This document shows positions 30,192 to 54,156 of a DNA stretch of 64,000 bases, piece by piece. The DNA is from Candidatus Omnitrophota bacterium. GTDB taxonomy: Bacteria > Omnitrophota > Gorgyraeia > JAUYCX01. The stretch covers positions 106,643 through 170,642 of the forward strand of contig JAUYCX010000049.1 in assembly GCA_030692045.1 (NCBI GenBank). The letters run 5' to 3'. A program made the position numbers and the translations under genes. The stretch's first letter is position 1, and every line of letters begins with the position of its first letter. Below the pieces are notes generated by a model. That model was not told where the DNA came from. It made no database searches and worked only from the letters and a program-made list of their open reading frames with translations.

Positions 30192-30194
30192 AAA

Positions 30195-32592: not shown

Positions 32593-32612
32593 TATAGAGG
32601 CGGATTTAATTT

Positions 32613-33506: not shown

Positions 33507-33519
33507 AGGAGAATGAAAA

Positions 33520-34536: not shown

Positions 34537-34539
34537 GTA

Positions 34540-35937
34540 ATGAGAATTTTATTAATTGCACCCATAAAAGATAGCTACTCTGGATTAGCTCAATATCCAC
34601 CTGTTGGCTTGGGTTATCTTGCCACTAGCGTTAGAAAATCTGGACATAGCGTAAGGATACTTGATTGCGTTAAAGAACAAATGGATTTTCTTAAATTTGA
34701 ATATTTTATTAAAAATAATAATTTTGATGTTATTGGTATTACAGTTTGGTCGTTATCTTTAAGAGAGGTAAAAAATAGTTTGGAAATAATTAAGAGAAAT
34801 AACCCTAAGGCAATTACGGTTATAGGTGGTCCTCATCCATCAGCTTTACCCGAAGATTCATTAAGATTCTTCAGGGAAGTTGATTTTGGTTTTAAAGGTG
34901 AAGCAGAGATAGGGTTTGCGCGTTTTATTGACCTACTTAACCATGGCGGATGTAATTTTCAAGATATTCCTGGTTTAATCTGGCGTAGTAGAGATAAGGT
35001 TATCTCTAACGCACCTATATGGGCAGATAATTTAGATGAATTAGGATTTCCCAGCTGGGATTTGATTAATCCACGGGATTATTTTATGCCAGGCGCTTTA
35101 GTAAGCAAAGACACAGCTGTGCTTACTTGCACAAGAGGTTGTCCTTATCAATGCACTTTTTGTTCTGCATGGATAACTGCCGGAAGAAAAATAAGGTGCC
35201 GCTCCATAAAACACATACTCAGCGAAATAGAATATCTTAGTTCTAATTTTGGCATTAGAATTTTTGATATTCCCGACGAGAATTTCACTTTTGATAAAAA
35301 ATATGTTATGGATTTTTGTGAAGCGGTTATGCAATATAATGGAAAGTTTGAGTTCTTCTTGCCAAATGGCATTAGGTTAGATTCTTTAAATAGAGAATTA
35401 CTTATTACGATGAGAAAGGCAGGTTTCAGAAGAGAAGTTGCGGTGGGAATTGAATCTGGCTCGGAAAGGGTGCTTAAATTAATGAAGAAAAATCTTTCAC
35501 TTGATAAAGTAAAGGAGAAGATAAAATTACTTAATCAGGCTGGATTTAGGCCAATTGGTTATTTTATTGTGGGTTTTCCCGGAGAGTCGAGAGAGGATTT
35601 AAGAAAAACCTTAAGGTTAGCGCTCAATCTTAAATTATATGCCGCAGCATTTACGCCGTTTGCGCCTATGCCTGGCACAGAGGCAACAGATTATATTCTG
35701 AAAAACAAAGAATTGCCAGAGGATTTTGATTTTACTTCTATAACAACTGATAAGGTTGCCTATGCCCCAGTTGGTATGACAAAACAAGAATTGAATAAGT
35801 TTAGAAAATATGCCCTTCTAAGATTTAATCTTAGACCACGCCCTTTGTTTTATTACCTATCAAATTATAATAGCTTTCGCTTCGCATTTGTAAAATTTTT
35901 GAATTTATTTTTCAAAAACGGACAAGTGGATTCCTAA
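34540..35937 (+). CDS. B12-binding-domain radical SAM protein (paralogue 6)
   Basis: 465 aa. Blocks VIGGPHPSA and FKGEAEIGFARF, linker LDELGFPSWDLI, cluster motif CTRGCPYQCTFCSA. The gap to the upstream SDR gene is 3 nt. Confidence 0.88.
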   Translation: MRILLIAPIKDSYSGLAQYPPVGLGYLATSVRKSGHSVRILDCVKEQMDFLKFEYFIKNNNFDVIGITVWSLSLREVKNSLEIIKRNNPKAITVIGGPHPSALPEDSLRFFREVDFGFKGEAEIGFARFIDLLNHGGCNFQDIPGLIWRSRDKVISNAPIWADNLDELGFPSWDLINPRDYFMPGALVSKDTAVLTCTRGCPYQCTFCSAWITAGRKIRCRSIKHILSEIEYLSSNFGIRIFDIPDENFTFDKKYVMDFCEAVMQYNGKFEFFLPNGIRLDSLNRELLITMRKAGFRREVAVGIESGSERVLKLMKKNLSLDKVKEKIKLLNQAGFRPIGYFIVGFPGESREDLRKTLRLALNLKLYAAAFTPFAPMPGTEATDYILKNKELPEDFDFTSITTDKVAYAPVGMTKQELNKFRKYALLRFNLRPRPLFYYLSNYNSFRFAFVKFLNLFFKNGQVDS

Positions 35938-35942
35938 GAAAA

Positions 35943-37811
35943 TTGAGAAAATTAATGGAAATCAAGAATAAAATTACTCTTGTCTTGGTTTTTATCTTAT
36001 TTTTTGGTTTTCTGCTACGTTTATGGGGTATAGGATTTGGTCTTCCTTATCTATCACATCCTGACGAAACAAGGGTTATTTTAGATACGCTTTCAATGGG
36101 CCATAGATTTAGTTTAATACCCCAGCGTCCGGATTATTCACTGCTTTATAGATATTTGCTTTTAGGATTATATGGTTGTTATTTTGTCGTGGGAAAATTG
36201 CTTGGCATATTTAGAGATTTGAATGATTTTGCATTTAAATTTATGGTTAATCCCACAGCCATCTATATTATTTCACGAATGGTTAGTGTAATCTTCGGAA
36301 CTCTAACTGGACTATTTTCTTATTTATTAGCAAAAAGGTTCTTTGATAAAACAACCGCTTTTGTAACAATGTTATTTGTTCTTTTTGAATTTCAGCTGCT
36401 TCAACATTCACAATGGGCAATATATCCAGCCGTATTTAGCTTTACTACATTGTTAGCTATTTATTCTATGTTTAGAGTTATTAAAGAACCTTCTTTAAAA
36501 AATTTTATTTTGATGGGAGTTTTTAATGGTATTTCGATTTCAACTCAGAATCATGGAATATTTTTACTGCCACCCCTAGCGATAACAGTTTTATTTCATT
36601 TTTTTGATAACAAAAATATTTTAGACAGAAAAGTTTTCTTTAAGAATTATTCTGCTTTAATTTTGAGTTTGGTAATTTTTAGTCTTTTAGGAAATTTTTA
36701 TTGGTTTTTTATCTTTAAAAAAACTTTTCTTAAATACTCTGAACTTATAGGAGTAACTAAGGTTGGCTTTGCCTCGAAGCCGCCTTATGCTAATAATATT
36801 TTCAGTTTGGTTTTTTGGTTTGTTAGTGAGCTTATAAGACAAGATGGGATCTTGGGAATTTTTTTAGTATTAGGTTTAATCTATTCAATAATTAAGCATA
36901 CTAAATTCGATATTGTTTTTTTAGCTTATGTAGTTACCAATTTATTTATATTCTCGGGTTGGGGTTTTAGGTTGCTACATGATATGTTAGGGGTAATGCC
37001 TATAATTTGTGTTTTTGGGGCTCGAGCGCTGGTTGACTTATTAAAAAAAATAAGATTTAAGGAGGCTTCGATAGGCATGGTCGCTTGTTTAATTTCCCTT
37101 CCATTGATATGCGATTCAGTTATTGTTGACATAAAAAAGAACAATCTTGATACAAGGCAACTAACAAAAGATTGGATTGAGCAAAATATTCCCAGTACCC
37201 AAAAGATAGCTATTGATTGGTACGTCTTTAGCGTAGCGTTAAATAGCGACATTCCATTGTATTTTAGAAATCCTGTTGCAAGAAAATATTATGAAGAGAA
37301 TATTCCTGATAAGATAAAAGAGTTATATGTTGATTATCTGAAAAATAAACCTGTTTATGACATAATCGAGATTATGGAATCAAGTGATAAGCCACACTGG
37401 CCTTCTGATATGCCACTTGAAGCCGTGAAAGAAGCTAATAGGCATGCCTTCTATAGAGACATATACAGCAAATTTAATTTTAGGTCTTTAGAATATCTCA
37501 AGAAAGAAAACGTTAAATATATCATTATTTCAAGTTACCTTTATGGCTTCTTTTTGTTAGATTCAGACTATAATAAAAGAGACCTCTTCAATCCCTTTAT
37601 AAAAGATAGGCCTTGGATAAATTTCAGTCAGTCAAACTATTATATAGATGATAAGAGATATGGATTATTATATTTTATAAGTCGAGATGCAAGAAATTTT
37701 TATCTTCCTCTTTTAAAAAATGAGCTTAAAGGCGTAGTCTTGATAAAAGAATTTAAACCGGATAACTGGCATTTAGGACCGATAATTAAAATTTATAAAG
37801 TAACACGATGA
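35943..37811 (+). CDS. GT-C glycosyltransferase, ArnT/PMT-like (GT39/GT83-type)
   Basis: 622 aa. GLPYLSHPDETRVILDTLSM follows the first helix and matches the PDETRY-type acidic loop motif of ArnT-like enzymes. There are about 11-13 TM helices and then a ~220-aa soluble C-terminal domain. TTG start at 35943 or ATG at 35955. Confidence 0.7.
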   Translation: MRKLMEIKNKITLVLVFILFFGFLLRLWGIGFGLPYLSHPDETRVILDTLSMGHRFSLIPQRPDYSLLYRYLLLGLYGCYFVVGKLLGIFRDLNDFAFKFMVNPTAIYIISRMVSVIFGTLTGLFSYLLAKRFFDKTTAFVTMLFVLFEFQLLQHSQWAIYPAVFSFTTLLAIYSMFRVIKEPSLKNFILMGVFNGISISTQNHGIFLLPPLAITVLFHFFDNKNILDRKVFFKNYSALILSLVIFSLLGNFYWFFIFKKTFLKYSELIGVTKVGFASKPPYANNIFSLVFWFVSELIRQDGILGIFLVLGLIYSIIKHTKFDIVFLAYVVTNLFIFSGWGFRLLHDMLGVMPIICVFGARALVDLLKKIRFKEASIGMVACLISLPLICDSVIVDIKKNNLDTRQLTKDWIEQNIPSTQKIAIDWYVFSVALNSDIPLYFRNPVARKYYEENIPDKIKELYVDYLKNKPVYDIIEIMESSDKPHWPSDMPLEAVKEANRHAFYRDIYSKFNFRSLEYLKKENVKYIIISSYLYGFFLLDSDYNKRDLFNPFIKDRPWINFSQSNYYIDDKRYGLLYFISRDARNFYLPLLKNELKGVVLIKEFKPDNWHLGPIIKIYKVTR

Positions 37812-38812
37812 ATCAATCCCCCTTAGTTAGTGTTATCATCACCAATTTTAATGGAATCAAATATTTGAGGAATTGTTTTGAATCGTTATATGCAGGTTCA
37901 TACAAGAATATAGAAATTATTTTTGTAGATAATGGCTCAGCAGATGGTAGTTTGGAATTTGTGCATCAGGCATTTAAAAATATAAAAACAATAGATAATA
38001 AAGACAATTTAGGCTTATCCATCGCCTCCAATAGGGGCGCAGAAATTGCAGATGGTAAATATTTGTTTTTTTATAATAATGATACGATTGCAGATACGGA
38101 TTTAATTAGTAATTTAGTGAAGGCTATGGAAAATGATTCTAAAATAGGTATTGCTGGTTGTAAAACTTATACTTATGATGGGAAGTATTTAATCAATGCT
38201 GGGGTTGCTTGCGATATTTTTGGTTATCCATATGGAAAGGGTAAGCCATTTTATGTGGATGCAGGAATTTTCATAAGAAAAGACTTATTTTATAAAATAG
38301 GCAAGTTTGATGAGAAGATGTTTCTTTATGGAGAAGACAGAGACATTTGTTGGAGGTGTTGGTTGTATGGGTATAAAGTTGCGGTAATTGAGAATGCAAA
38401 ATTTTTACATAACAGTGCCTGTATAACAAGGGATTTAAAGCAGTATCGTACTAATATAAATAAACGCTTTTGGGGAGAGCTTAATTCGTTGCGTTCAATA
38501 TTAAAGAATTATAGCGTTGGATTTATTTTTTTTATTTTATTACTTTTTATGCTGATGAATTTAGTCGAGATATTGGCATTTTTTATCAAAGGAAAATTTA
38601 AAATAATTAAGTATGTTTATATCAAATCTTATATTGAGAATCTAAAAAGCATAGAAGATACTTTAAGAAAAAGAAAAACGATTCAGCAAGAAAGAAGGGT
38701 TTCTGATTTTAAAATAGTCAATCATATGTCAAAAATTAGCGGCAAATTAAAATTATTTCTGGATATGGGGATACCGAAGTTTAGCGAAAATGTAAAATAC
38801 GGTAATGCTTAA
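37808..38812 (+). CDS. GT2 glycosyltransferase
   Basis: VSVIITNFNGIKYLRNCFESL .. EIIFVDNGSADGS .. FFYNNDT .. LYGEDRDICWR, with a C-terminal TM helix. ATGA overlap with the GT-C gene. Confidence 0.85.
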   Translation: MNQSPLVSVIITNFNGIKYLRNCFESLYAGSYKNIEIIFVDNGSADGSLEFVHQAFKNIKTIDNKDNLGLSIASNRGAEIADGKYLFFYNNDTIADTDLISNLVKAMENDSKIGIAGCKTYTYDGKYLINAGVACDIFGYPYGKGKPFYVDAGIFIRKDLFYKIGKFDEKMFLYGEDRDICWRCWLYGYKVAVIENAKFLHNSACITRDLKQYRTNINKRFWGELNSLRSILKNYSVGFIFFILLLFMLMNLVEILAFFIKGKFKIIKYVYIKSYIENLKSIEDTLRKRKTIQQERRVSDFKIVNHMSKISGKLKLFLDMGIPKFSENVKYGNA

Positions 38813-40019
38813 GAATAATTTATCAAAAAATGATGTATTATTATGCGGGCTTGCCTTTACCAGCAGGACAGAAACCTTAGAGGAATACCTTAAAGATAAG
38901 GTAAGGTCGTTGACGGTAGTCGCAATTTCCAGCTGTTTTTTAAAAGAGAATTTAAGTTATTGCCGGGTATATGAAAATGGTATTTTGGCCGATAAATTCA
39001 AGATACCCAATCTTCGAATTAAGGATTATAAATGGTACCGTCAGCCGTTAATTTTGTTAGTGTTTATTATAAACTGGTTATCAATTGCTCTCGTTGTCTT
39101 GAAGCTTAAAAAAAGGTTTGATTTGTGTATAGGCATATCTCATTCTTTTACTTTTATGGGAGTGATATTCAAAAAGTTTAGAATAGTAAGAAAACTCTTA
39201 TATTATTGCATCGATTACTATATACCACAGGACAAGATTAATTTTAATTCCTTATTTGTGAGGATGATAAATTTTATAGAACGCTTTATAGTAAAGAATT
39301 CAGATTACGTATGGGATATTTCTCCAAACATTGCTGAATACAGGGCAAAAGTTGGCGGAGTTAAAAAATTCTCTTATAAAAATATGATTGTCCCTTTAGG
39401 ATATGCAAGTCATTTAAAGAGGTTCGAGTCTATAGAAAATATTAACCGTTGGGATATAGGTTTTGTCGGTACCATTACTGTCAGCCAAGGATTACAGCTT
39501 TTAATAGAGTCATTACCGGATATTGTGAAGGAATTTCCTTTGGTTAGAGTAAAAATTATTGGAGATGGCCCTTTTTTAAAAGAATTGAAAGCAAATGTTC
39601 ATCAAAGAGGATTGAAGGATTATTTTAATTTTCTTGGTTTTATAAAAGAAGAAAAAAAGATGCTTGATATACTTTCTAAGTGTGCAATTGGAGTAGCGCT
39701 GTGGAATCATTCAATTGACGATAAGAATATTATTTGTGCCGATCCTGGTAAAACTAAATTATATGCTTTGTGTGGATTGCCGATGATTGTAACTAAAGTT
39801 GCCTCTATTGCTGATGAGGTTAAAAGGCGAAAAGCGGGATTAGTTATTGAGTATGATCTTAAAGCATTGATTGAGGCATTCGATTATTTATTAAAGAGTG
39901 ATGAGACTCTACGTTTATATAGAGAGAATGCTGCATCCCTTGGTAGGAAATACACATCAGAGCATATCTTTGATTGCGCATTTAAAGAAGCATTTAATAT
40001 TTTTAACATTTTAGAATAA
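38805..40019 (+). CDS. GT-B fold glycosyltransferase (GT4-like)
   Basis: 404 aa. GFVGTITVSQGLQLLIESLPDIV..VRVKIIGDGP and ADPGKTKLYALCGLPMIVTK resemble the GT4 C-terminal domain. The N-terminal half is divergent and includes a hydrophobic segment. Confidence 0.6.
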   Translation: MLKNNLSKNDVLLCGLAFTSRTETLEEYLKDKVRSLTVVAISSCFLKENLSYCRVYENGILADKFKIPNLRIKDYKWYRQPLILLVFIINWLSIALVVLKLKKRFDLCIGISHSFTFMGVIFKKFRIVRKLLYYCIDYYIPQDKINFNSLFVRMINFIERFIVKNSDYVWDISPNIAEYRAKVGGVKKFSYKNMIVPLGYASHLKRFESIENINRWDIGFVGTITVSQGLQLLIESLPDIVKEFPLVRVKIIGDGPFLKELKANVHQRGLKDYFNFLGFIKEEKKMLDILSKCAIGVALWNHSIDDKNIICADPGKTKLYALCGLPMIVTKVASIADEVKRRKAGLVIEYDLKALIEAFDYLLKSDETLRLYRENAASLGRKYTSEHIFDCAFKEAFNIFNILE

Positions 40020-40028
40020 GAATATTTT

Positions 40029-40730
40029 ATGAGAGATAAAGGATTGATGTTTGATATTAATGTATCTGCCTTACAAGAGTTTATTACTGAACCTTGGAAG
40101 CACGGTCCCCATTTTAAGGCTTTAAAATATATTCTATCTGATTCCAAAGTCTTAGATGTTGGTTGCTCGAAGGGTTATATAGCAGATTTGCTTAAGTTTA
40201 AGAAATGTTATGTAGTGGGAATAGAAAAAGATAAACCTACATCTAATATAGCGAGAAAATATTGTAATGAAGTAATCACAACCGATATTGAAAATTTTGC
40301 TGAATTGCCCTATCCTGATGGTTTTTTTGATTTTATTTTATGTTTAGATGTGTTGGAACATATCGCAAGGCCGGATATTATTTTAGATAAATTGAGAAAC
40401 TATTTATCAAATAATGGTAGTATTATAGTTTCATTACCCAATATAGCCCGTTTTGAAAATCGTCTAAAATTACTTTTTGGAAAGTTTGATTATAACGAAA
40501 AAGCAAGCGCCTTTAATAAGGGTCATCTTAGATTCTTCACTTTAAAGACCGCAAAAGACTTAGTCCAATCTGCTGGTTTTAGAATTATAAAGATTGAGTA
40601 TACAGGCTTATGTTCGATTGTAAAGGTTTTTCCCGCGTTAACTGCTTTTCAATTTTTATTAGTAGCAAAGAAAAATATTTTATTTGAGTGTACTAAGAAA
40701 GACAAGAAGGAGATATCGTGGACGAGATAA
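40029..40730 (+). CDS. Class I SAM-dependent methyltransferase
   Basis: Motif I is KVLDVGCSKGYIADLL. The post-I and motif II regions are VVGIEKD and FDFILCLDVLEHIARPD. 233 aa. Confidence 0.8.
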   Translation: MRDKGLMFDINVSALQEFITEPWKHGPHFKALKYILSDSKVLDVGCSKGYIADLLKFKKCYVVGIEKDKPTSNIARKYCNEVITTDIENFAELPYPDGFFDFILCLDVLEHIARPDIILDKLRNYLSNNGSIIVSLPNIARFENRLKLLFGKFDYNEKASAFNKGHLRFFTLKTAKDLVQSAGFRIIKIEYTGLCSIVKVFPALTAFQFLLVAKKNILFECTKKDKKEISWTR

Positions 40731-41686
40731 CTAATAAAGTAAAAAAAATGTATGAATCGTATCCATTTCCTAGTTGTAATATGATTAATGTTGCATACGG
40801 CAATCGTGTTAAGGATGATTTAAGTAAAAGAGGATATGTTGTTAATAAACTAAAAATTTTAGAAGCTGGCTGCGGAACAGGAGAAAAGGCAATTTCTTTA
40901 GCCAAGGTTTTCTGTGACTCTGAAGTGATAGGCTGGGATGTTTCTAAGGTGAGCGTAGAAAAAGCTGATCAGCTGGCAAAAAAAGAAAAAGTCAATAATA
41001 TGAAATTTGAAAATGTCGATTTGTTAAATGTAGATTTATACAAATATGAGGGATATTTTGATTTAATTATTTCTTGGGGCGTAATTCATCATCTGTCAGA
41101 TACTGTTAAGGGATTAGAAAATTTAGGGTTATGTTTAAAGCCAACTGGATTGATTTATGTTTGGGTATATGCCTTGCATTCTTTGCAAAGAATAGAAACT
41201 CGACTCTGTAGAGAGACGATTAAAATTTTACTTAAAAAAGATGGATTCTCTTACGAAAAAGGTATCAAGATTGCCAATGCCATAAAAGGACTTTTGAAGA
41301 CCCTTAACTATTCTGGCAAGAAAGATTTTCTAATGCGCTTAAAATGGTTTTTTAATAAAGATGTAAACAAGAAACAAGTGATTTTACATATTTTAAAGAA
41401 TATACGAAAAATAAAACTTAGCTTAGATTATGATGCAAATATAGTGGATGCCTTTTTACATGCGAATGAAAAGGATTATAGTGTAAGAATGGTCTTTGAT
41501 GAAGCAGAAAAAGCTGGTCTTGAGGTAGTTGATTTTATTGAACCTACTTCAAAAATAGAGGACTTTGTAAAATCTGATTTCGTTAGGAGGCTTTACTATG
41601 GTCTAGATTTAATTGATAGATTAGAAGTTATGGAGCGTATAGTTAATCCCGGAAATCTCATATTTTTAGCAAAAAGAAAAATATAA
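40718..41686 (+). CDS. Class I SAM-dependent methyltransferase
   Basis: GTG start 6 nt after an AAGGAG SD. Motif I is KILEAGCGTGEKAISLA, followed by VIGWDVS and FDLIISWGVIHHLSD. 322 aa with a C-terminal extension. Confidence 0.8.
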   Translation: MDEITNKVKKMYESYPFPSCNMINVAYGNRVKDDLSKRGYVVNKLKILEAGCGTGEKAISLAKVFCDSEVIGWDVSKVSVEKADQLAKKEKVNNMKFENVDLLNVDLYKYEGYFDLIISWGVIHHLSDTVKGLENLGLCLKPTGLIYVWVYALHSLQRIETRLCRETIKILLKKDGFSYEKGIKIANAIKGLLKTLNYSGKKDFLMRLKWFFNKDVNKKQVILHILKNIRKIKLSLDYDANIVDAFLHANEKDYSVRMVFDEAEKAGLEVVDFIEPTSKIEDFVKSDFVRRLYYGLDLIDRLEVMERIVNPGNLIFLAKRKI

Positions 41687-43600
41687 ATGTGTGGAATTTG
41701 TGGATTTATAGGTTTTAAAGACGAAAAGCTTCTTAAGGAGATGACAGATACAATTTCCCATCGTGGTTTGGATGATGAGGGATATTATTCAACGGATGAG
41801 ATAAATTTAGGTTTTAGGCGTCTAAGTATTATAGATTTAAAAGGTGGTAATCAACCTCTTTGTAATGAAGAAAAAAGTATTTGGAGTGTTTGCAATGGTG
41901 AAATATATAATTTTAAAGAAATAAAAGAAGAACTGATTAAATATGGTCATATTTTTAATACTGATACAGACACAGAAATTTTACCACATTGTTATGAACA
42001 GTGGGGGATAGATTTTGTAACTCGAATTAATGGTATGTTTGCTTTTGCTCTTTGGGATGGAAATATAAAGAAATTATTTTTAGTGAGAGATAGATTAGGC
42101 ATAAGGCCTTTGCATTATACATTTGATGACAGAAAGTTGGTGTTTGCTTCTGAAGTGAAGGCAATTTTGAAATACGATAATTTTAGAAAAGAATTAGACT
42201 ATAATGCTATAGATGATTTTTTAACTTTTCGTTATATCCCTGGAGATGTGACATTCTTTAAAAATATAAAGATTTTAGAACCGGCACATATATTAATTTA
42301 TCATAACGGTGCAATTGATATTAAGAAATACTGGGATATTACGATGGAAGAAGACTTTAGTATTCAAAGACAAGAATACATTCAGCGCTTTTCTTCTCTG
42401 TTGGATTCTTCTGTAAAAAGATGTCTTTTAAGTGATGTGCCTTTGGGTGTTTATTTAAGCGGAGGATTAGATTCTTCTGTGATAGCAGGCCTTGTAAAAA
42501 AGAATTATGGAGAAGATTTGGTAGTTTTTTCTCATGGATTTGATGGAGAGGAAGATGAGTTAAGATTTGCTAGAAAAGTTGCCAAATTCTTAAATGCAAA
42601 AAATTATGAAATATTTATCGAGGAGAAACATTTAGAGTTATTGCCTGATATTATCTATCATTTGGATATGCCAATTGCCAATTCTGATATTATCGGATTT
42701 TTTCTTTTGGCAGGATTAGCGCAAAAACATGTCAAGGTTATCCTTACAGGAGAAGGTTCCGATGAATTATTCGGTAGTTACGTACATCAAGAGATGCTTT
42801 ATTATGGATACAAGTTAAAGCGGTTGTTGCCTAAAAATGTGATTAAAAATGTATTACCTTGGTTTATTAAGCAAAGCCCTTTATGGTTAATAAATAAATT
42901 CTTTCGATATCCAGGATATTCTTTAGATAATGAGTCGCGTCTTAAGTTATTAGATTATTTCGAATCTTCAAATTTGGCTTCAGACTATTTCTGTATAAAT
43001 TCTCTTTTTAATCAGAGGCAGAAAGAAAGTTTATATTCAGATGATTTTAAAAATAAAGTGAAATATTCTAACTCTCCAGCAAAAAAAGTTTTGCAAGATA
43101 TACTTTACGATGAAAACATAAAACATATTTTTAACCGCTTAATTTATCTTGAATTTAAATATTGGCTGCCTACTTATCATTTGATGAAAGAAGATAAGAT
43201 TGCCATGTCATTTTGCTTAGAATCTCGTTATCCCTATTTAGACCATGAGATTGTTGAATTTATGGGAAGTCTGCCTGTTAGTTTAAAGAAAAAGGGTCTG
43301 AAGAGAAAATATCTCTTAAGAAAGATATCAAAAAATTTGGTGCCGGAAGAGATTAGAAATCGGCCAAAAGGACCCATACTGGTTCCTATTAATAAATGCT
43401 TTGACAAATCTTTTGAGCAAAAGTTAAGAGAATTATTTACGCCTGAAAAAGTAAAAAAAAGAGGAATTTTTCATTATGAATATTTAAAAAATCTAATCAA
43501 TAATCGAAAACAAAATCCTTTTTTATATGATCGGCAATTATTCGCATTACTTACTTTGGAAATTTGGTTTAATCTTTTTGTAGACAAAAATGGAAGATAA
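41687..43600 (+). CDS. Asparagine synthase-family glutamine amidotransferase (AsnB-like, copy 2)
   Basis: 637 aa. MCGICGF supplies the Cys2 nucleophile and YLSGGLDSSVIA is the PP-loop. The ATG directly abuts the upstream stop. Confidence 0.9.
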   Translation: MCGICGFIGFKDEKLLKEMTDTISHRGLDDEGYYSTDEINLGFRRLSIIDLKGGNQPLCNEEKSIWSVCNGEIYNFKEIKEELIKYGHIFNTDTDTEILPHCYEQWGIDFVTRINGMFAFALWDGNIKKLFLVRDRLGIRPLHYTFDDRKLVFASEVKAILKYDNFRKELDYNAIDDFLTFRYIPGDVTFFKNIKILEPAHILIYHNGAIDIKKYWDITMEEDFSIQRQEYIQRFSSLLDSSVKRCLLSDVPLGVYLSGGLDSSVIAGLVKKNYGEDLVVFSHGFDGEEDELRFARKVAKFLNAKNYEIFIEEKHLELLPDIIYHLDMPIANSDIIGFFLLAGLAQKHVKVILTGEGSDELFGSYVHQEMLYYGYKLKRLLPKNVIKNVLPWFIKQSPLWLINKFFRYPGYSLDNESRLKLLDYFESSNLASDYFCINSLFNQRQKESLYSDDFKNKVKYSNSPAKKVLQDILYDENIKHIFNRLIYLEFKYWLPTYHLMKEDKIAMSFCLESRYPYLDHEIVEFMGSLPVSLKKKGLKRKYLLRKISKNLVPEEIRNRPKGPILVPINKCFDKSFEQKLRELFTPEKVKKRGIFHYEYLKNLINNRKQNPFLYDRQLFALLTLEIWFNLFVDKNGR

Positions 43601-44654
43601 TTTCTGGAAGAATAAAAAAGTTTTAATAACCGGCGGAACGGGATTTTTGGGAAAACATCTTGCAGATGCCTTGTTAAAAAAAGATGCCATTTTACGTATT
43701 TTAGATTTTCGTAAACCTGTTGAAGAAATTAAAGGAATTGAATTTTTTGAAGCTGATATTAGAGATAAGAATAAGATAAATGAACTTTGTAGGGGCTCTG
43801 ACCTAATATTTCATTTGGCTGCTATGCCCTCAATTGCAAAGGGAAAATTTAAACAGTATTATGAGGTTAATGTTTTGGGAACCAACAATATTCTTGAAGG
43901 TGCACATAATTATGGAATAAAAAAGGTCGTACATGTATCAAGCAGCACAGTTTATGGTATGCCTCGTGAGTTTCCTTTAAAAGAAACCAGCCCTACACAA
44001 CCGCTGGGAAAATATAGCAGCACTAAATTAGAAGCAGAACGACTTTGCAATGAGTTTATGAATAAAGGAATAAGTATCTCAATTATTCGCCCACGGGTTA
44101 TTATCGGTCCTGGGCGTATCGGCATTTTTAGTATTCTGTTTGAGCGTATCATAAACAACAAGCCAGTGTATATTTTGGGGAAAGGGGATAATGTATTTCA
44201 GTTTACGAATGTATTTGATATGGCATCGGCATGTATTAAAGCAGCAGAATATGAAAAATCAGATTTATTCAATATTGGCTGCGAGGAAGTTTCGCCTGTT
44301 AAAGAAGAATTGAAAGGTTTGATAAGTTATGCAAAAAGTAGTTCGCAAATTATTTCTCTTCCAGCAAACTTGACAAAGGCAGGTCTTTGGGCACTATCTT
44401 TTCTTGGTATGTCTCCTTTGGTAGAGGAACAATTTATGATTGCGGATAAAAATTTTAAACTCGACACAACATACGCAAAAGAGAAATTGGACTGGTTTCC
44501 GATATATAGTAATTTGGATTCGTTAATTCAGGCATATGATTGGTATGCAAAGAATGAAAATTTAGCATCGAGACAGTATAAAAGTTTATTTAGCGTGCTG
44601 GGAAAATTTAGGCATAGCCACTTGGGCGGTTTTCAAAATCAAAAACGTGGATAA
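43590..44654 (+). CDS. Extended SDR NAD-dependent epimerase/dehydratase (3beta-HSD-like)
   Basis: KKVLITGGTGFLGKHLADALL and YSSTKLEAE (YxxxK). 354 aa. Overlaps the upstream gene by 11 nt. Confidence 0.75.
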   Translation: MEDNFWKNKKVLITGGTGFLGKHLADALLKKDAILRILDFRKPVEEIKGIEFFEADIRDKNKINELCRGSDLIFHLAAMPSIAKGKFKQYYEVNVLGTNNILEGAHNYGIKKVVHVSSSTVYGMPREFPLKETSPTQPLGKYSSTKLEAERLCNEFMNKGISISIIRPRVIIGPGRIGIFSILFERIINNKPVYILGKGDNVFQFTNVFDMASACIKAAEYEKSDLFNIGCEEVSPVKEELKGLISYAKSSSQIISLPANLTKAGLWALSFLGMSPLVEEQFMIADKNFKLDTTYAKEKLDWFPIYSNLDSLIQAYDWYAKNENLASRQYKSLFSVLGKFRHSHLGGFQNQKRG

Positions 44655-45438
44655 TAAAGATTCTAAATTTAAAAAAGAAATACAAAATTATTGGACTAAA
44701 AATGTTCCTGGATTGGAGATTACCTCCCGCAAATTTAAGACAGATGAAAAGGAGTTTTATATAGATGTTGATAACTTCCGTTATAAATATGATTCCTACG
44801 TTATTCCTTTAATTGATTCCTTTACAAAAGCAGGAAGTTGCATTTTAGAAATTGGTTGTGGTTTGGGCTCTGACAGCCGTTATATGGCTAAAAAGGAAGC
44901 CAATGTTATAAGCCTTGATTTATCTTGGCAAAATGTTTTTTTTACTTTGAAAGGACTGAGTTTATTAAATTTAGATGGTAATGGCATTTGCGCTGACGCA
45001 GAAAATTTACCCTTTAAAGACAGTACCTTTGATGTGGTTTACTCGTTCGGAGTTTTGCATCATACGCCAAATACAGAAAAAGCAATCGAAGATATTTATA
45101 GAGTGCTAAAGCCAAATGGAAAATGCACAATAATGCTTTATCATAAAGGTTATGCTTATTATCTACTTTTGTTGTTGCATGGGTATAAGCAACTTTTAGG
45201 GATTTATAATAAAGAAAAATTGATGAGTGAATATGACCATACACCACTTTCAAAATTATATTCCAAAAAAGAAATAAATTTATTATTTCGGAAATTTAAA
45301 GATTTAAATTTAGAGATTACAACTTATGGGGGAATACAGGCGCATCCTTTCTTAAAATTTATCTACAAGTTATTTAGACATAATGAATTTTTGCTGCGTA
45401 ATTTTGGTTCTTTCGTTATCGTTAAATGCAGAAAATGA
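44647..45438 (+). CDS. Class I SAM-dependent methyltransferase
   Basis: GTG start. Motif I is ILEIGCGLGSDSRYMA, followed by VISLDLS and FDVVYSFGVLHHTPN. Confidence 0.8.
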   Translation: MDNKDSKFKKEIQNYWTKNVPGLEITSRKFKTDEKEFYIDVDNFRYKYDSYVIPLIDSFTKAGSCILEIGCGLGSDSRYMAKKEANVISLDLSWQNVFFTLKGLSLLNLDGNGICADAENLPFKDSTFDVVYSFGVLHHTPNTEKAIEDIYRVLKPNGKCTIMLYHKGYAYYLLLLLHGYKQLLGIYNKEKLMSEYDHTPLSKLYSKKEINLLFRKFKDLNLEITTYGGIQAHPFLKFIYKLFRHNEFLLRNFGSFVIVKCRK

Positions 45439-46136
45439 ATATTCTTGTTTCGATATTTAGATTAAGTGCATATCTTCATTCATCATTTTTTTATAAACGA
45501 AAGGTCGCTTCTATTTTAGGACATAGTCTTAAAGAAATAAATTTAATTTATAAAGAGGTTAGCAGTTCGCAGTGGTTCAAGGAAATTGCCCAAAAAAAGA
45601 ATATTAAGCAAGGGCTTTTTGATTTCAGTATGTTATCTCCCTTGAGGGCACAAACATTATATGTTCTTTGTAGGATAGCGAAGCCAGAAATAGTGGTTGA
45701 GACAGGCGTTTCTGAAGGTTTTTCTTCAACTTTTATTCTGCAGGCGTTAGAGAAAAATAATAAAGGTCATCTTTATTCCATAGATTTGCCTAATCAGCCA
45801 GGACAAAAGTTGCCAGAGAATAAGACAACCGGTTGGCTTATTCCCGAAGACCTTAAGAAAAGATGGATGCTTATCTTAGGTTCATCACGAGAGAAACTGT
45901 CTGCGCTTTTAAATGATTTAAAAAATATCGATATTTTCTTTCATGATAGCGACCACAGTTATGAAAATATGATGTTTGAATTTGAATCAGCTAAATCATA
46001 TCTTAAAAGTGGAGGGTTTTTACTTTCTGATGATATCACTGACAATAATTCCTTCAGGGATTTTTGTAACTTTAACAAATGCAATTATGTAAGATTATTT
46101 AAGTTGGGTATAATAAAAAAGATTAGCATTTTATGA
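45426..46136 (+). CDS. Class I SAM-dependent methyltransferase (Methyltransf_24/CmcI-like, tentative)
   Basis: IVVETGVSEGFSSTFILQAL .. LYSIDL .. IFFHDSDHSYENM resembles the CmcI/O-methyltransferase-type fold. 236 aa. Confidence 0.6.
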   Translation: MQKMNILVSIFRLSAYLHSSFFYKRKVASILGHSLKEINLIYKEVSSSQWFKEIAQKKNIKQGLFDFSMLSPLRAQTLYVLCRIAKPEIVVETGVSEGFSSTFILQALEKNNKGHLYSIDLPNQPGQKLPENKTTGWLIPEDLKKRWMLILGSSREKLSALLNDLKNIDIFFHDSDHSYENMMFEFESAKSYLKSGGFLLSDDITDNNSFRDFCNFNKCNYVRLFKLGIIKKISIL

Positions 46137-47611
46137 ATAAGAAAGTTGATGTAGTTTTATTCGGTTCAATTTTACCACCAGCTGATTTTAGAATTACCCC
46201 AGGTAGTTTCCCTTTAGGGTTATTGGCCCTGGCTCCAATTTTAAAACAGAAAGGATTATCTGTTGAGGTCATTAGTGGTGCTTTTAGGGATGCCCATCAG
46301 AGGTTAGAAGATACCATTAAACGTTGCAGATATTTCGGCGTTTCTTCTATGACTGGGCCATATTTAAAGATGGCAATTGATGTTTCAAAAGCAGTAAAAA
46401 GAAAATATCCTCATATTCCTATTATTTGGGGAGGAGTGCACGCTACATTATTATACGAAGAGACGATTAAAGAAGATTATGTTGATGTGATAGTAAGAGG
46501 CATGGGGGAAGATACGCTTTGGAGCTTAATAGAAGCATTGGAGAAAGGGCTGCCATTGAGTAATATTAAAGGAATTACATATAAAATTAACGGAAGAATA
46601 ATCTCTAATTCCGATATAGATATACCCGATATAAATAAATTTCCCAGTTTTGATTACAGTGACTTTTTGTCATATCGAGATGATATAAGTGAACTTCCTT
46701 ATATTTCAAGCAGAGGCTGTCCCTATGGCTGCACTTTTTGTGTGGCAAGCAAACTATATAATCGCAAATATTATTTTTATTCTGCAGAGAGAATGTTTGA
46801 GGATATAAGTGGACTTGTTGATGCATTTGGCTGCAATAGATTTACTTTTTGGGATGATAATCTTTTTGTTATAAAAGATAGATTAAAAAATTTCTGCCGG
46901 TTGCTGGTAGACAACGATATTAAGATTAAATGGTCGGCTTTTTGTCATTGTGATTTATTTCTAAAATATGATGATGAAATGGTAAGGCTAATGAAAGAAG
47001 CGGGCTTGGAGAATATTAGTTTTGGAGCCGAATCGGGTTCTCTCAAAATCCTAAATTTGATTAAGAAAAAGATAACACCTGAACAGATAGTCTCTTGTGT
47101 TTTAAGGACAAAGGAATTTAATATAGATGCTGATTTTACATTTATGACTGGTTTTCCGCAGGAAACAATGGATGATTTTAAACAAACGCTCTCACTTTTT
47201 AAAGAAATGCTAAAGATAAATCCTGATATTAGTATTAGGCTGTTTGCTTTTACTCCCTATCCTAAAATTCCAATTTTGGAGCAGGAACCGAGTCTTGCGC
47301 AATACTTTCCAAATACTATAGACAGCTGGGCTATTTTAACCTATCAAAATTATATTCCACAATGGTTAGATAAGGGTCGCCAAAAATTAATCGATAATAT
47401 CGTTTGGATGGTAAATTTTCTTTCCCGCAAGCAAAGACCAAAGACCCAGAACATTTTTTTTAATCTTTTACTTTACCTATATCATCTTAGCGCTTTATTC
47501 AGGCTAAAAATTAATTTCTTATCCTATGCTTTTGAATGGAAATTATTTAAATTCGCTTATAAAATTAACGCAAGGCTTATAGTGCAAAAAACTACAGAAT
47601 GGAAACTGTAA
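46133..47611 (+). CDS. B12-binding-domain radical SAM protein (paralogue 7)
   Basis: 492 aa with an ATGA overlap. Blocks IWGGVHATL and VRGMGEDTLWSL, linker INKFPSFDYSDF, cluster motif SSRGCPYGCTFCVA. Confidence 0.85.
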   Translation: MNKKVDVVLFGSILPPADFRITPGSFPLGLLALAPILKQKGLSVEVISGAFRDAHQRLEDTIKRCRYFGVSSMTGPYLKMAIDVSKAVKRKYPHIPIIWGGVHATLLYEETIKEDYVDVIVRGMGEDTLWSLIEALEKGLPLSNIKGITYKINGRIISNSDIDIPDINKFPSFDYSDFLSYRDDISELPYISSRGCPYGCTFCVASKLYNRKYYFYSAERMFEDISGLVDAFGCNRFTFWDDNLFVIKDRLKNFCRLLVDNDIKIKWSAFCHCDLFLKYDDEMVRLMKEAGLENISFGAESGSLKILNLIKKKITPEQIVSCVLRTKEFNIDADFTFMTGFPQETMDDFKQTLSLFKEMLKINPDISIRLFAFTPYPKIPILEQEPSLAQYFPNTIDSWAILTYQNYIPQWLDKGRQKLIDNIVWMVNFLSRKQRPKTQNIFFNLLLYLYHLSALFRLKINFLSYAFEWKLFKFAYKINARLIVQKTTEWKL

Positions 47612-49059
47612 AATCGGAGAGAAAAGATATCCATAAGATTATTCTTTTTAATGTAAACGATGCTTTTCCTGCAGGAGAAATATTTCAGGAACCTGCTCTG
47701 GGTTTGGGTTATATAAAGTCATATTTTGATATGTACTCTCATTTAAAAGACAAAATCAATATAACAATTTTAAAAAAAGATATTTGGCAGACGCTTGTAA
47801 TAGAGAAACCCGATGTCATTGGCATATCTTCTGTTACTCAAGATTATACCAACGCCATAAAATATGCCAAGAAAATTAAGCAGGCTGGTTCCAAGGCCTT
47901 AATAATAATTGGCGGAATACATATAAGTAATCTACCTGAATCATTCAATGATGTTTTTGATATTGGAGTAACAGATGAGGGAGAACAAACCTTTAAAGAA
48001 TTAATTGAATCAATCTATGAATTTGGTTTTGACAAAGAAAGATTAAGAACGATAAAAGGCCTGCTTTATAAAGAAGGAGAGGAGCTGGTAATGACAGGCA
48101 GAAGGGCCTTGATTGATGATTTAGATTCCATTCCGCCGCCATATAGAAAGTATCTAAAATTTAATACCCTTTTACACATCCTTACTGCAAGGGGCTGTCC
48201 TTACAAATGTGCTTATTGCTCATCGAGTGCTTTTTGGGGATATAAAGTAAGATTTCATTCGCCCAAAAGAATAATAGATGAGATGATAGAGTTAATTAAA
48301 GAATACCACCTTATGCACATTTCTATTTGGGATGATTTATTTGCCATTAACAAAAAGAGACTAAGAGAAATTGTTAATTTAATTAAAGATAATAGAGCAG
48401 TTTTTAAAGATATTACCTTCGGCGTTACAGCTAGGCCAAATGTTGTGGATGAGGAATTATGCGAATTATTAAGAGAGATGAATGTAACCCGTGTTTCTTT
48501 AGGCATCGAATCTGGGTCCGATAAAATGCTTAAAGTTTTGAATCGCAATATTACTGTTGAACAAAACCACAAGGCAGTCAAGGTACTTAAAAAATATAAG
48601 TTTACAGTTAACGGGGGAGTTATTGTCGGTTCACCTCAAGAGTCATTGGATGATTTAGAGAAGACCTATGACTTTGTATTAAGTTCTGAATTGGATGGAG
48701 GAGGAATTGGACTGGCGCTTCCCTATCCAAATACAGAATTCTGGAATTTCGCTAAGAAAAGAAATTTAGTGAGTGCCGATATGGACTTTTCAAAATTGGT
48801 TTTAATTCAGGATCCCACCAAATTAAAGGCAGAAGATGATTTTATATTTTTAAATGATACATTAAGCCGAAAGGATTTTCTTGAAATAGCCATAAAAATT
48901 CATAAATTATTTGTTAAAAAGAATGCTCTATCTTTTTTTAACCGCAAGAATTTTAATTTAAGAAATGTCAGAATGTCACTAAGTAATCCAAAATTATTTT
49001 TTCCATTCATAATGTATAATTTTAAAAAATTAATTAGGAGCTTATGTTTTCATGGCTAA
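47599..49059 (+). CDS. B12-binding-domain radical SAM protein (paralogue 8)
   Basis: 486 aa. Blocks IIGGIHISN and VTDEGEQTFKEL, linker LDSIPPPYRKYL, cluster motif TARGCPYKCAYCSS. Confidence 0.85.
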   Translation: METVKSERKDIHKIILFNVNDAFPAGEIFQEPALGLGYIKSYFDMYSHLKDKINITILKKDIWQTLVIEKPDVIGISSVTQDYTNAIKYAKKIKQAGSKALIIIGGIHISNLPESFNDVFDIGVTDEGEQTFKELIESIYEFGFDKERLRTIKGLLYKEGEELVMTGRRALIDDLDSIPPPYRKYLKFNTLLHILTARGCPYKCAYCSSSAFWGYKVRFHSPKRIIDEMIELIKEYHLMHISIWDDLFAINKKRLREIVNLIKDNRAVFKDITFGVTARPNVVDEELCELLREMNVTRVSLGIESGSDKMLKVLNRNITVEQNHKAVKVLKKYKFTVNGGVIVGSPQESLDDLEKTYDFVLSSELDGGGIGLALPYPNTEFWNFAKKRNLVSADMDFSKLVLIQDPTKLKAEDDFIFLNDTLSRKDFLEIAIKIHKLFVKKNALSFFNRKNFNLRNVRMSLSNPKLFFPFIMYNFKKLIRSLCFHG

Positions 49060-50092
49060 TTTTATTACTAGGTTCAGAAATTTAATAGTTGATTCATACC
49101 GAGGCAAGAAGATTATGCATTATTTATTAAAATCATTTATTTTTACTAAGAATCCAGTGTATAGATATTTGTGCCTTAAAGATATCCGTAATAAAATACC
49201 TTCTTTGGAAAAATTACCTGTTTTTGTCACAATCGAAAATACAAATTTGTGTAATCTTTCTTGCATTTTTTGCGCTAATGAGCAGATGGCAAGAAAAAGA
49301 GGTTTTATGGATGATAATTTATTCAAATCAATAATTGACCAATGCGTTTATCACGGAATTCCTAATGTATTAGTTCAAGGTTTTGGAGAACCGCTATTAG
49401 ATAAAGATTATGTTTCTAAAATAAGGCTTGCAAAGGAAAAGGGAATAAAATTTGTGCATTGTGTAACGAATGGAGTTTTGCTAAACAAGGCTCTTTCAGA
49501 AGAACTAATCAATGCAGGATTAGATTATATTTATATAAGCATTGATGCGGCAACCCCTGAAGTTTATAGCCAGGTACATCATTTACCTTCCAAGCAAATA
49601 CCCAGCGACGATTTTTTCACCATTGTTGAAAATATAGAACAGCTCATTAATATTAAGAAAAAAAATAGAACAAAAAAGCCTTTTATTGAAGTTCGGTTTA
49701 AAGATTTCGAACTAAATAAAAAAGACCTAATTTGTTTTATGGATAAGTATCGTGGAAGAGTAGATAAAGTAAACATTTACATGAATATTACTAATTGGCC
49801 CGGAAGCACTATCAGAAATAATTTACCCAGAGTAAGAATGCTGAAATTTCCCTGCTTTAATCTTTGGTCAACTTTATATGTTAGTTATGAAGGAAAGGTT
49901 TCACTTTGTTGTCAGGATTATGAATGTAAAGTTGTGATAGGGGATGTAAAAAAAGAGTCTCTTATAGAAATATGGAATGGGCATAAATTAAAAAATTTTC
50001 GCACTTTGCATTTAGAAAATAAGTTTGATGAAATTTCGATTTGTGGAGATTGTGTGGTAAATACTCATCTAGTTACTCCTTGGTGGCAATAG
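49052..50092 (+). CDS. Radical SAM protein with SPASM/twitch-type C-terminal auxiliary-cluster domain
   Basis: 346 aa. The N-terminal cluster motif is NTNLCNLSCIFCAN. The C-terminal region CFNLWSTLYVSYEGKVSLCC fits C-x13-G-x4-C, and ICGDC follows. Confidence 0.8.
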   Translation: MANFITRFRNLIVDSYRGKKIMHYLLKSFIFTKNPVYRYLCLKDIRNKIPSLEKLPVFVTIENTNLCNLSCIFCANEQMARKRGFMDDNLFKSIIDQCVYHGIPNVLVQGFGEPLLDKDYVSKIRLAKEKGIKFVHCVTNGVLLNKALSEELINAGLDYIYISIDAATPEVYSQVHHLPSKQIPSDDFFTIVENIEQLINIKKKNRTKKPFIEVRFKDFELNKKDLICFMDKYRGRVDKVNIYMNITNWPGSTIRNNLPRVRMLKFPCFNLWSTLYVSYEGKVSLCCQDYECKVVIGDVKKESLIEIWNGHKLKNFRTLHLENKFDEISICGDCVVNTHLVTPWWQ

Positions 50093-54145: not shown

Positions 54146-54156
54146 AAGGGGTGAAT

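Follow-up and report, generated by a model that had tools for sequence, protein, structure and literature searches.

What is built by a run of tailoring enzymes that contains no glycosyltransferase of its own? The question is raised by a 64,000-nucleotide stretch of DNA from a Candidatus Omnitrophota bacterium (GenBank assembly GCA_030692045.1, contig JAUYCX010000049.1; hereafter the window), in which six genes at positions 40029 to 46136 encode four methyltransferases, an AsnB-type amidotransferase and a short-chain dehydrogenase/reductase (SDR), and run straight into three radical S-adenosylmethionine (SAM) genes that end at 50092. An earlier note, made from the sequence alone, took these nine genes for a unit leading to a heavily methylated, amidated sugar and recognised no described pathway of this composition. 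On balance we lean towards a composite block instead, in which one part (sub-module A) would belong to a polyprenyl-phosphate pentofuranose side-branch system and the other (sub-module B) would provide variable decorations. The six open reading frames (ORFs) of the block and the radical SAM genes that follow are:

40029..40730 (+), MT1: class I SAM methyltransferase (Pfam Methyltransf_23, 1.6e-20; also Methyltransf_11), a variable accessory gene
40718..41686 (+), MT2: class I SAM methyltransferase (Pfam Methyltransf_31, 1.7e-20; also Methyltransf_25/12)
41687..43600 (+), AsnB: glutamine-dependent, ATP-dependent amidotransferase (Pfam GATase_7 and Asn_synthase)
43590..44654 (+), SDR(43590): extended SDR (Pfam Epimerase, 2e-43), the invariant neighbour of AsnB
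44647..45438 (+), MT3: class I SAM methyltransferase (Pfam Methyltransf_11, 5e-22; also Methyltransf_25)
45426..46136 (+), MT4: O-methyltransferase-like protein (Pfam Methyltransf_24, 1.7e-20), a variable accessory gene
46133..47611 (+), rSAM_b: B12-binding radical SAM enzyme (Pfam; CPYGCTFC), variable
47599..49059 (+), rSAM_c: B12-binding radical SAM enzyme (Pfam; CPYKCAYC), variable
49052..50092 (+): SPASM radical SAM enzyme (Pfam Radical_SAM and SPASM)

The six lie on the forward strand exactly where the earlier note had placed them, and Pfam bore out its domain order of two methyltransferases, AsnB, SDR and two further methyltransferases, followed by three radical SAM enzymes.

Linkage of the block genes in related loci

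The proteins of the window were compared by tblastn with 26 related loci anchored on AsnB, which were gathered through exact-protein lookups, a GTDB scan that gave 4 loci and a metagenome scan that added others (single loci are denoted by L numbers); one further locus consisted of gene calls only, with no DNA. The exact-sequence lookup of the AsnB of the window returned no match, and the GTDB loci nearest to this protein are from Omnitrophota metagenome-assembled genomes (MAGs). What follows starts from demonstrated features, namely gene content, domain identities, intact active sites, a GT-C fold and patterns of co-occurrence.

SDR(43590) adjoins AsnB in each of the 21 distinct loci with flanking DNA. 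Flanks were long enough to look for a UbiA-family gene in 13 loci (the window, 11 of the compared loci and the gene-call-only locus), and in every one of them the gene is linked to AsnB. The linkage of AsnB, SDR and UbiA persists at AsnB identities of 35-39% and across 25-52% GC, a span of base composition from which we conclude that several lineages are involved. Glycan biosynthesis, the context assumed by the earlier note, surrounds AsnB in 26 of 26 related loci, and neither polyketide or non-ribosomal peptide synthesis nor a housekeeping setting was ever encountered among them. The partners lie on both sides of the block, in a surface-glycan module of about 24 kb (30195-55146) that is tightly packed and contains the following further genes:

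30195..31532 (+), UGDH: UDP-glucose/nucleoside-diphosphate (NDP)-sugar 6-dehydrogenase (Pfam UDPG_MGDP_dh N, central and C domains)
31567..32592 (+): extended SDR of the NDP-sugar epimerase/dehydratase type (Pfam Epimerase, 2e-47)
32613..33506 (+), UbiA: UbiA-family polyprenyl-phosphate 5-phosphoribosyltransferase of the Rv3806c/PPPRS type (NCBIfam NF008977)
33520..34536 (+), SDR(33520): 3-beta-HSD-type extended SDR (Pfam 3Beta_HSD, 1.4e-31; GxxGxxG and YxxxK)
34540..35937 (+), rSAM_a: B12-binding radical SAM enzyme (Pfam B12-binding and Radical_SAM; CPYQCTFC)
35943..37811 (+): PMT_2/ArnT-like GT-C glycosyltransferase (Pfam PMT_2, 44.7 bits against a cutoff of 26.1)
37808..38812 (+): GT2 glycosyltransferase of the nucleotide-sugar GT-A type (Pfam Glycos_transf_2)
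38805..40019 (+): GT4 glycosyltransferase (Pfam Glycos_transf_1), with its stop 10 nt before the block
50098..51915 (+): YfhO/DUF6311-like glycosyltransferase with a GT-C fold, assigned from a fold model (no Pfam match for the window protein)
51912..53729 (+): NodU/CmcH-type carbamoyltransferase (Pfam Carbam_trans_N, 8e-101, and Carbam_trans_C, 4e-70)
53726..54145 (+): SxtJ-family small membrane protein (Pfam SxtJ, 2e-11) with three segments resembling transmembrane (TM) helices
54157..54315 (+): DUF5989 (SxtK-like) membrane peptide of 52 aa (Pfam DUF5989, 3.6e-25)
54364..55146 (+): DUF3108 protein (Pfam DUF3108, 1e-19), a recurrent partner downstream of the YfhO-like GT-C

The 5′ part of the module in Omnitrophota has the order UGDH, epimerase, UbiA, 3-beta-HSD-type SDR, an optional B12-binding radical SAM gene, PMT-like GT-C, GT2 and GT4; the 3′ part continues with MT1 and MT2 (both optional), AsnB, SDR(43590), MT3, MT4 and radical SAM genes (again optional) and the YfhO-like GT-C, after which come the carbamoyltransferase, SxtJ, DUF5989 and DUF3108 genes. 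Within this frame, L001 possesses AsnB, SDR(43590), MT2 and MT3 and lacks MT1, MT4 and all three radical SAM genes of the slot, and in L011 the same slot upstream of the GT-C is filled by other genes. L010, from an Omnitrophica MAG, encodes GT2, UGDH, epimerase, GT4, a B12-binding radical SAM enzyme and another methyltransferase together with counterparts of MT1 (38% identical), MT3 (48%), MT4 (55%) and the YfhO-like GT-C (56%); no counterpart of UbiA, the PMT-like GT-C, AsnB, SDR(43590) or MT2 was found there.

The string of nine genes is repeated in none of the 26 related loci, where its members have been gained, lost, truncated and reordered independently. Nor does the block travel as one unit: MT2, AsnB and SDR(43590) accompany UbiA, the 3-beta-HSD-type SDR and the PMT-like GT-C, and MT1, MT3, MT4 and the B12-binding radical SAM genes accompany GT2, GT4 and the YfhO-like GT-C, in L010 even without AsnB. 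These patterns (the constant AsnB-SDR-UbiA linkage, the variable slot and L010) lead us to regard the block as composite. The comparison further marks the slot upstream of the YfhO-like GT-C as a hot spot of variation in the surface glycan; population-variable polysaccharide cassettes have been documented in Omnitrophota (bioRxiv 10.64898/2026.06.07.730766).

Outside the close relatives, SDR, AsnB and UbiA are contiguous or overlapping in low-GC (25%) marine contigs, and distant copies of the trio are accompanied by a GMC flavoprotein, a polytopic membrane protein of ~720 aa (DUF6044 in one case) and a B12-binding radical SAM enzyme. The GMC oxidoreductase adjoins UbiA in L004, L005, L021, L022, L028 and the gene-call-only locus. 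Judged by gene neighbourhood, SDR, AsnB and UbiA (PPPRS) together with a GT-C appear to be a conserved association across lineages, of which we found no description.

A compact arrangement is also conserved in a low-GC marine lineage (L021, L022, L025 and L028; about 25% GC), with the order polytopic membrane protein (DUF6044), SDR, AsnB, UbiA and GMC oxidoreductase, an overlap of 4-25 nt between AsnB and UbiA, and NeuB, CMP-sugar, SPASM radical SAM and Methyltransf_24 genes nearby.

Predicted chemistry of the amidotransferase and the lipid-linked pentose genes

The motifs of AsnB are intact (Cys2 in MCGICG, SGGLDS at 258 and GEGSDE at 355), those for glutaminase and adenylation are invariant across 21 orthologues, and the protein scores 456 bits against TIGR01536 (cutoff 267). 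It has the sequence hallmarks of a class II glutamine amidotransferase coupled to a PP-loop synthetase, and would be expected to amidate a carboxylate at the expense of ATP; among solved structures, the AsnB-type hydroxyamidotransferase 7ylz is nearest to it. The strict conservation of the ATP/adenylation motifs speaks against reductive amination, i.e., transfer of ammonia onto a keto-pentose, and membership in the XrtA/PEP-CTERM amidotransferases (TIGR03108) was rejected at 472.3 bits against a cutoff of 816.9. A second AsnB-type amidotransferase is encoded at 12981-14876, next to GT4 and GT2 genes; it is 34% identical to the AsnB of the block and has no exact GEGSDE.

The UbiA protein (297 aa, without a HAD domain) matches NF008977, the model for decaprenyl-phosphate phosphoribosyltransferase, at 267.1 bits against a curated cutoff of 234, and its only relatives in the PDB are the structures of the Mycobacterium tuberculosis DPPR synthase, 8j8j/8j8k, aligned over the full length at an E value of 4.7e-31. 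The best matches of the UbiA proteins of distant loci are DPPR-synthase models as well, below cutoff. The adjoining SDR(33520) is 39-82% identical in related loci and is a candidate for an auxiliary role on the lipid-linked pentose, as epimerase or oxidoreductase. Both it and SDR(43590) are extended SDRs of 338-354 aa with GxxGxxG and YxxxK motifs and have no TM segment or signal peptide.

For the transfer step, the module encodes two GT-C candidates. The PMT_2-like protein, 2.2 kb upstream of the block, has about 8 TM segments and orthologues of 42-52% identity in 8 distinct loci; a sequence search of the PDB gave only a spurious match. The YfhO-like protein begins 6 nt past the SPASM radical SAM gene, its start being placed at 50098 rather than 50041 by the deposited gene call (605 aa) and by homologues. 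An AlphaFold (AF2) model built from 30 homologues reached a pLDDT of 79.5 and a pTM of 0.83, and the top 20 Foldseek matches of this model in the PDB are all GT-C enzymes at probability 1.0, including STT3/OST, DPY19, AftD, AglB, PglB, ArnT, AftA and ALG9; as modelled, the protein is a glycosyltransferase of the GT-C fold. The pair D39-E40, which falls between predicted helices 1 and 2, is the same in all 30 aligned homologues, and PF19830 or PF09586 is present in some homologues of the family. The GT2 enzyme (37808) was considered as a GtrB/ArnC-type polyprenyl-phosphate glycosyltransferase and rejected: its relatives in the PDB are ordinary nucleotide-sugar GT-A enzymes (GalT1 and the chondroitin/heparosan synthases) and not GtrB/DPMS, which makes UbiA the likely source of the lipid-monophosphate donor for a GT-C.

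The account that follows of substrates for the individual tailoring enzymes, of the sequence of steps and of the acceptor is inferred from these features. Sub-module A would comprise MT2, AsnB and SDR(43590), as modifiers of a lipid-linked pentose donor or of a uronate built on it. The extended SDRs would re-tailor the pentose, joined in other lineages by the GMC flavoprotein, and AsnB would use glutamine hydrolysis and ATP to convert a carboxylate on the lipid-linked intermediate into a carboxamide. Once the intermediate had been flipped, its modified sugar would be transferred to an acceptor on the periplasmic face of the membrane by one or both of the GT-Cs (PMT_2-like and YfhO-like). Sub-module B, i.e., MT1, MT3, MT4 and the downstream B12-binding and SPASM radical SAM enzymes, would be a strain-variable set for O-, N- or C-methylation that is tied to the backbone of GT2, GT4 and YfhO-like GT-C and to the carbamoyltransferase-SxtJ-DUF5989 trio, and may diversify the surface glycan.

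The earlier note overlooked two precedents, the first of which is the closest described system. In the three-component pentofuranose pathway, a UbiA-type polyprenyl-phosphoribose synthase, a flippase and a GT-C act in turn, and undP-Ribf can be turned into undP-Xylf before export by a cytoplasmic SDR epimerase that is optional, as represented by ORF12-15 of Citrobacter youngae O1/O2 (Kelly et al., PNAS 2024, PMC11127046). Its phosphoribose 5′-phosphatase is either a HAD PRP domain fused to the synthase or a separate protein, and the authors mention unexplored “more elaborate systems” with multiple epimerases or GT-Cs; amidotransferases, carbamoyltransferases and radical SAM enzymes are not mentioned in the text or supplement (PMC11127046). 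The window resembles this system in having a UbiA-type synthase within an O-antigen-type locus, a GT-C and SDRs that may be auxiliary epimerases of the cytoplasm, and, as there, gain and loss of auxiliary genes would diversify the antigen. The polyprenyl-phosphoribose synthase is present as UbiA and the GT-C as two proteins whose use of the donor is predicted. In contrast to the described system, the window ties an AsnB amidotransferase to SDR and UbiA, has two SDRs and two GT-Cs (PMT_2-like and YfhO/DUF6311-like), associates methyltransferases, B12-binding radical SAM enzymes and the carbamoyltransferase trio with them, and possesses a UbiA with neither a fused HAD phosphatase nor an adjacent MATE flippase.

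The same phosphoribosyltransferase family and GT-C transfer recur in the mycobacterial decaprenyl-phosphoryl-arabinose (DPA) pathway, which consists of Rv3806c, Rv3807c, DprE1/DprE2, Rv3789 and the Emb/Aft GT-Cs; the matches of the YfhO-like fold include AftD and AftA among others. In distant loci, the flavoprotein and SDR beside UbiA form a GMC/SDR pair that may parallel DprE1/DprE2 by analogy. However, the flavoproteins of these loci belong to the GMC family and not, like DprE1, to the VAO family, the SDRs are extended rather than classical like DprE2, an amidotransferase is present, and the hosts are Omnitrophota and marine lineages instead of Actinobacteria. The window itself was found to contain no flavoprotein oxidase, and hence neither a DprE1-type oxidase nor its pairing with a DprE2-type classical SDR.

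Several points weigh against the composite, pentofuranose-based reading. The substrate of AsnB is left unexplained because polyprenyl-P-ribose has no carboxyl group. Neither a 5′-phosphatase (HAD/PAP2) nor a GtrA/SMR/MATE flippase lies beside UbiA in the window, where the sole HAD protein (62438-63037) is 29 kb away and the sole flippase candidate is the Wzx/MatE-like protein at 10435-11766. SDR(43590) aligns with NDP-sugar 4-epimerases over residues 10-240 only, so its substrate class is not fixed, and MT2 is missing from many AsnB-SDR-UbiA loci, which makes its assignment to sub-module A weaker than that of the SDR. All of the reasoning proceeds from gene neighbourhood in metagenomic contigs. 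Finally, in the Omnitrophota loci UGDH lies immediately upstream of UbiA, so that a conventional hexuronamide route is equally possible there. In favour of the reading, the L005 cassette includes a HAD gene and a weak GtrA-like match.

Where the carboxylate would reside can be suggested only tentatively. It may be C5 of the pentose, which the GMC enzyme, UGDH or an SDR would oxidise before amidation, to give a new sugar, or, with the same modest likelihood, it may sit on a hexuronate derived from UGDH. A more specific proposal, which we consider more speculative still, is that SDR, AsnB and UbiA with GMC or UGDH and a polytopic GT-C-like protein constitute an undescribed, taxonomically broad cassette for a polyprenyl-P-pentofuranuronamide, which would be attached by a GT-C outside the membrane and, in Omnitrophota, be further methylated, C-methylated and carbamoylated.

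Alternative routes to an amidated sugar

The strongest alternative, a possible one that we nonetheless rate clearly below the composite reading, dispenses with the lipid-linked pentose. UGDH would supply UDP-GlcA, SDR(43590) would convert this to UDP-GalA, GT2 or GT4 would add it to a lipid-linked unit and AsnB would amidate it, with methyl, C-methyl and carbamoyl groups added later; UbiA and the GT-C would then be a separate side-branch system sharing the operon. UGDH (360 bits against TIGR03026, cutoff 190) is indeed in the operon of the window, L001, L004 and L016, and is syntenic in these loci and in L010, yet L010 combines UGDH, GT4 and methyltransferases without AsnB, and the contiguous SDR-AsnB-UbiA genes of L005, L021, L022 and L028 have no UGDH visible within their flanks. 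The neighbouring NDP-sugar epimerase (31567..32592) has counterparts of only 25-34% identity in related loci.

The solved relatives of SDR(43590) point both ways. They include a GDP-sugar 4-epimerase (8rdg; PMC12171764) and the UDP-GlcA 4-epimerases 6zl6 (1.8e-24) and MoeE5 (6kv9; 1.1e-23), and the catalytic S/T-Y-K triad of 6zl6 is conserved. However, Thr178 and Arg185, which hold the carboxylate in 6zl6 (PMC12338863), correspond to Val and Ile, the latter preceded directly by an Arg, and residues 241-354 of the SDR, its C-terminal substrate domain, do not align with 6zl6.

The AsnB-type enzyme MoeH5 is documented to amidate the carboxyl group of a galacturonate in a lipid-linked glycan (PMC8778134), and MoeK5 is a cobalamin-dependent radical SAM C-methylase (PMC9204698); a carbamoyltransferase and B12-binding radical SAM enzymes are present here too. 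This galacturonate tailoring of moenomycin is the second precedent, and may be a close functional analogy: an epimerase, AsnB-type amidotransferases, a carbamoyltransferase and a B12-binding radical SAM enzyme act on a lipid-phosphate-linked sugar to give a carboxamide-bearing, carbamoylated, C-methylated uronate, the likeness of the enzymes being one of class. MoeF5 is a further AsnB-type amidotransferase of that pathway and MoeM5 its carbamoyltransferase. Moenomycin differs in its lipid anchor, a prenyl-phosphoglycerate made via MoeO5 as opposed to polyprenyl-P-ribose via UbiA, in the absence of GT-C enzymes and in being a secreted antibiotic of actinomycetes. AsnB-type amidotransferases that form uronamides also occur in O-antigen clusters, such as WbpS of Pseudomonas aeruginosa O6 and WbtH of Francisella. 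These systems likewise combine an AsnB homologue with an NDP-sugar 6-dehydrogenase and an SDR epimerase in an O-antigen-type locus, and their product is presumed to be a sugar carboxamide, but they have no UbiA or GT-C partner, whereas the linkage to UbiA is the most conserved feature here.

The model of the earlier note, in which the nine enzymes from 40029 to 50092 form one pathway to a methylated, amidated nucleotide sugar for a distant transferase, we regard as improbable. Its junctions of 13, 0, 11, 8 and 13 nt were reproduced, and the overlapping start codons are the sole plausible ones in the six-gene block: MT2 starts at a GTG with an AAGGAG Shine-Dalgarno sequence upstream, and any later start of SDR(43590) would remove part of its GxxGxxG motif; an alternative start of MT4 at 45435 would leave a 4-nt overlap. 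Eight consecutive tight junctions, from 40730 to 49052 through the block and the radical SAM genes, are the longest unbroken run in the window and would be consistent with co-translation, and the nine enzymes, which have no predicted TM segment except one weak hydrophobic stretch in AsnB, are probably cytoplasmic, as the model supposes. However, junctions that overlap or abut are common across the window (28 of 54; 46% outside the block), so it is only for the length of this run that those of the block are notable. Related loci do not share the string, its genes vary independently, and half of them associate with a different backbone from the other half. The statement that the block contains no transferase holds literally for 40029-50092 and is an effect of where its boundaries were drawn, since GT2 and GT4 lie directly upstream and the YfhO-like GT-C directly downstream. 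An amidated, methylated sugar remains a sensible product class, although not as the output of one self-contained block, and the alternative raised in the earlier note, a dedicated pathway for a substituent on the glycan, comes close to what the evidence favours.

A secreted, amidated, carbamoylated and C-methylated phosphoglycolipid resembling moenomycin is very improbable, since the parallels in tailoring (epimerase-like SDR, AsnB, carbamoyltransferase, B12-binding radical SAM enzymes and glycosyltransferases; PMC3814723, PMC8778134, PMC9204698) are set against a module embedded in a 64-kb lipopolysaccharide (LPS)/O-antigen-type locus with Wzx, two Wzy_C, Bac_transf and GT9 proteins, no MoeO5-type prenyl-phosphoglycerate synthase recognised in the window, and two GT-C enzymes that imply periplasmic transfer to a macromolecular acceptor.

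Variable decorations and their meaning for Omnitrophota

The composite reading assigns most of the methyltransferases to the variable part of the locus. The four are different enzymes, as the earlier note had it: pairwise identities do not exceed 30% and MT4 has no detectable similarity to the other three, which suggests that they are not recent duplicates. MT1 has counterparts of 34-38% identity in L002 (shared with L003 and L012), L008, L010 and L013 and is absent from L001, L004 and L016. MT2, with the motif I sequence ILEAGCGTG and a C-terminal extension of about 170 aa, is 64-66% identical in L001, L004 and L008, truncated in L002 and L016 and absent elsewhere, and thus seems to be a semi-conserved partner of AsnB. 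MT3 is 59-63% identical in the close Omnitrophota group and 48% in L010, where AsnB is missing; its nearest solved relatives are phosphoethanolamine N-methyltransferases (1e-15). MT4 is present in L008, L009, L010, L013 and L027, about half-length in L002 (shared with L003 and L012) and absent from L001. Its further Pfam matches are to CmcI/RMNT (4e-5) and Methyltransf_3 (7e-5), and no match of MT4 to PF05711, the family of the TylF-like (TylF/MycF-type) enzymes suggested in the earlier note, was listed at E<=0.01. No NCBIfam family scored above cutoff for any methyltransferase, SDR or radical SAM enzyme, with no NCBIfam match at all for MT4. The relatives of MT2, MT3 and MT4 in the PDB range from protein-lysine and phosphoethanolamine N-methyltransferases to generic O-methyltransferases and share only the Rossmann core, so they do not decide between O- and N-methylation.

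In L002, L003 and L012 (~7477-8513 and 13766-14327), the counterparts of MT1, MT2 and MT4 are split or truncated (81 + 110, 135 and 65 + 94 aa) and a B12-binding radical SAM gene is inserted before AsnB, which looks like ongoing decay and replacement of tailoring genes.

The radical SAM enzymes of the module, all with an intact CxxxCxxC, are similarly uneven in distribution. Orthologues of rSAM_a are 66-69% identical in L002, L004 and L013, rSAM_b is 73% identical in L017, 37% in L008 and 30% in L010, the best counterpart of rSAM_c is 44% identical (L016), and the SPASM enzyme (49052) has no counterpart in any related locus sampled. The 64 kb contain eight B12-binding radical SAM enzymes and one SPASM radical SAM enzyme in all (1140-7825, 17200-18615, 34540-35937 and 46133-50092), whose mutual identities of only 23-35% indicate that they did not arise by recent duplication. 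This set suggests that sugars are extensively C-methylated, or otherwise modified by radical chemistry, in this Omnitrophota lineage.

Downstream of the slot, the carbamoyltransferase is 55-85% identical in L001, L004, L005, L013 and L016. The full carbamoyltransferase-SxtJ-DUF5989 trio also occurs in L001 and L005, and parts of it recur in L001, L004 and L005; the DUF5989 ORF is shorter than the length limits of the ORF listings. The genes at 51912-54315 resemble the saxitoxin SxtI/J/K trio, here in a glycan locus, and the two small membrane proteins suggest that the carbamoyltransferase acts at the membrane. The DUF3108 gene lies downstream of the YfhO-like GT-C in L001 and immediately after it in L011. 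Together, this GT-C and DUF3108 resemble an anchor common to the phylum, directly upstream of which the tailoring slot is hypervariable (L010, L011). The GT-C has 488 homologues at >=52% identity, and all those with an organism name are from Candidatus Omnitrophota/Omnitrophica. Upstream of the slot, orthologues of the GT4 enzyme (38805) are 51-61% identical, with L010 included.

The window as a whole is a Wzx/Wzy-type, LPS/O-antigen-type surface-glycan locus carried on one strand over 64 kb, with a coding density of 97.8%. The 56 ORFs of >=120 aa taken as genes are all on the forward strand; the remaining two listed ORFs of this length are on the reverse strand, inside forward-strand genes. 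Besides the genes described above, it encodes two GT9 heptosyltransferases, Wzx, two Wzy_C proteins, a Bac_transf initiating transferase, a WecG/TagA transferase, several GT2 and GT4 enzymes and nucleotide-sugar enzymes. Its largest intergenic gap (232 nt) directly precedes UGDH (30195). Scanned for promoters and terminators, positions 29500-49400 yielded no more of them than expected from shuffling, and we therefore claim no operon boundaries from it. The starts of the longest ORFs at 50041, 18452, 26260 and 58390 are probably too early, with apparent overlaps of 52, 164, 76 and 83 nt. Two polytopic membrane proteins without a significant Pfam match (7800-8891, with a weak PMT match at E 0.0018, and 19709-21001) may be further GT-C or polymerase-like proteins.

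If the hexuronamide route is the true one, the locus would be an ordinary, richly decorated O-antigen-type cluster. The observation of many methyltransferases has been narrowed to a testable cassette of three to five genes. To our knowledge, lipid-linked pentofuranose donors have been thought to vary solely by epimerisation, from ribose to arabinose or xylose; if the composite reading is correct, this route to antigenic diversity, which was recognised only recently, would gain a new kind of chemistry from an amidotransferase as obligate partner. Omnitrophota are mostly uncultured and possibly host-dependent, ultrasmall bacteria, whose envelope chemistry is, as far as we know, essentially unstudied, and the same reading would predict a novel amide-bearing surface sugar in this phylum.

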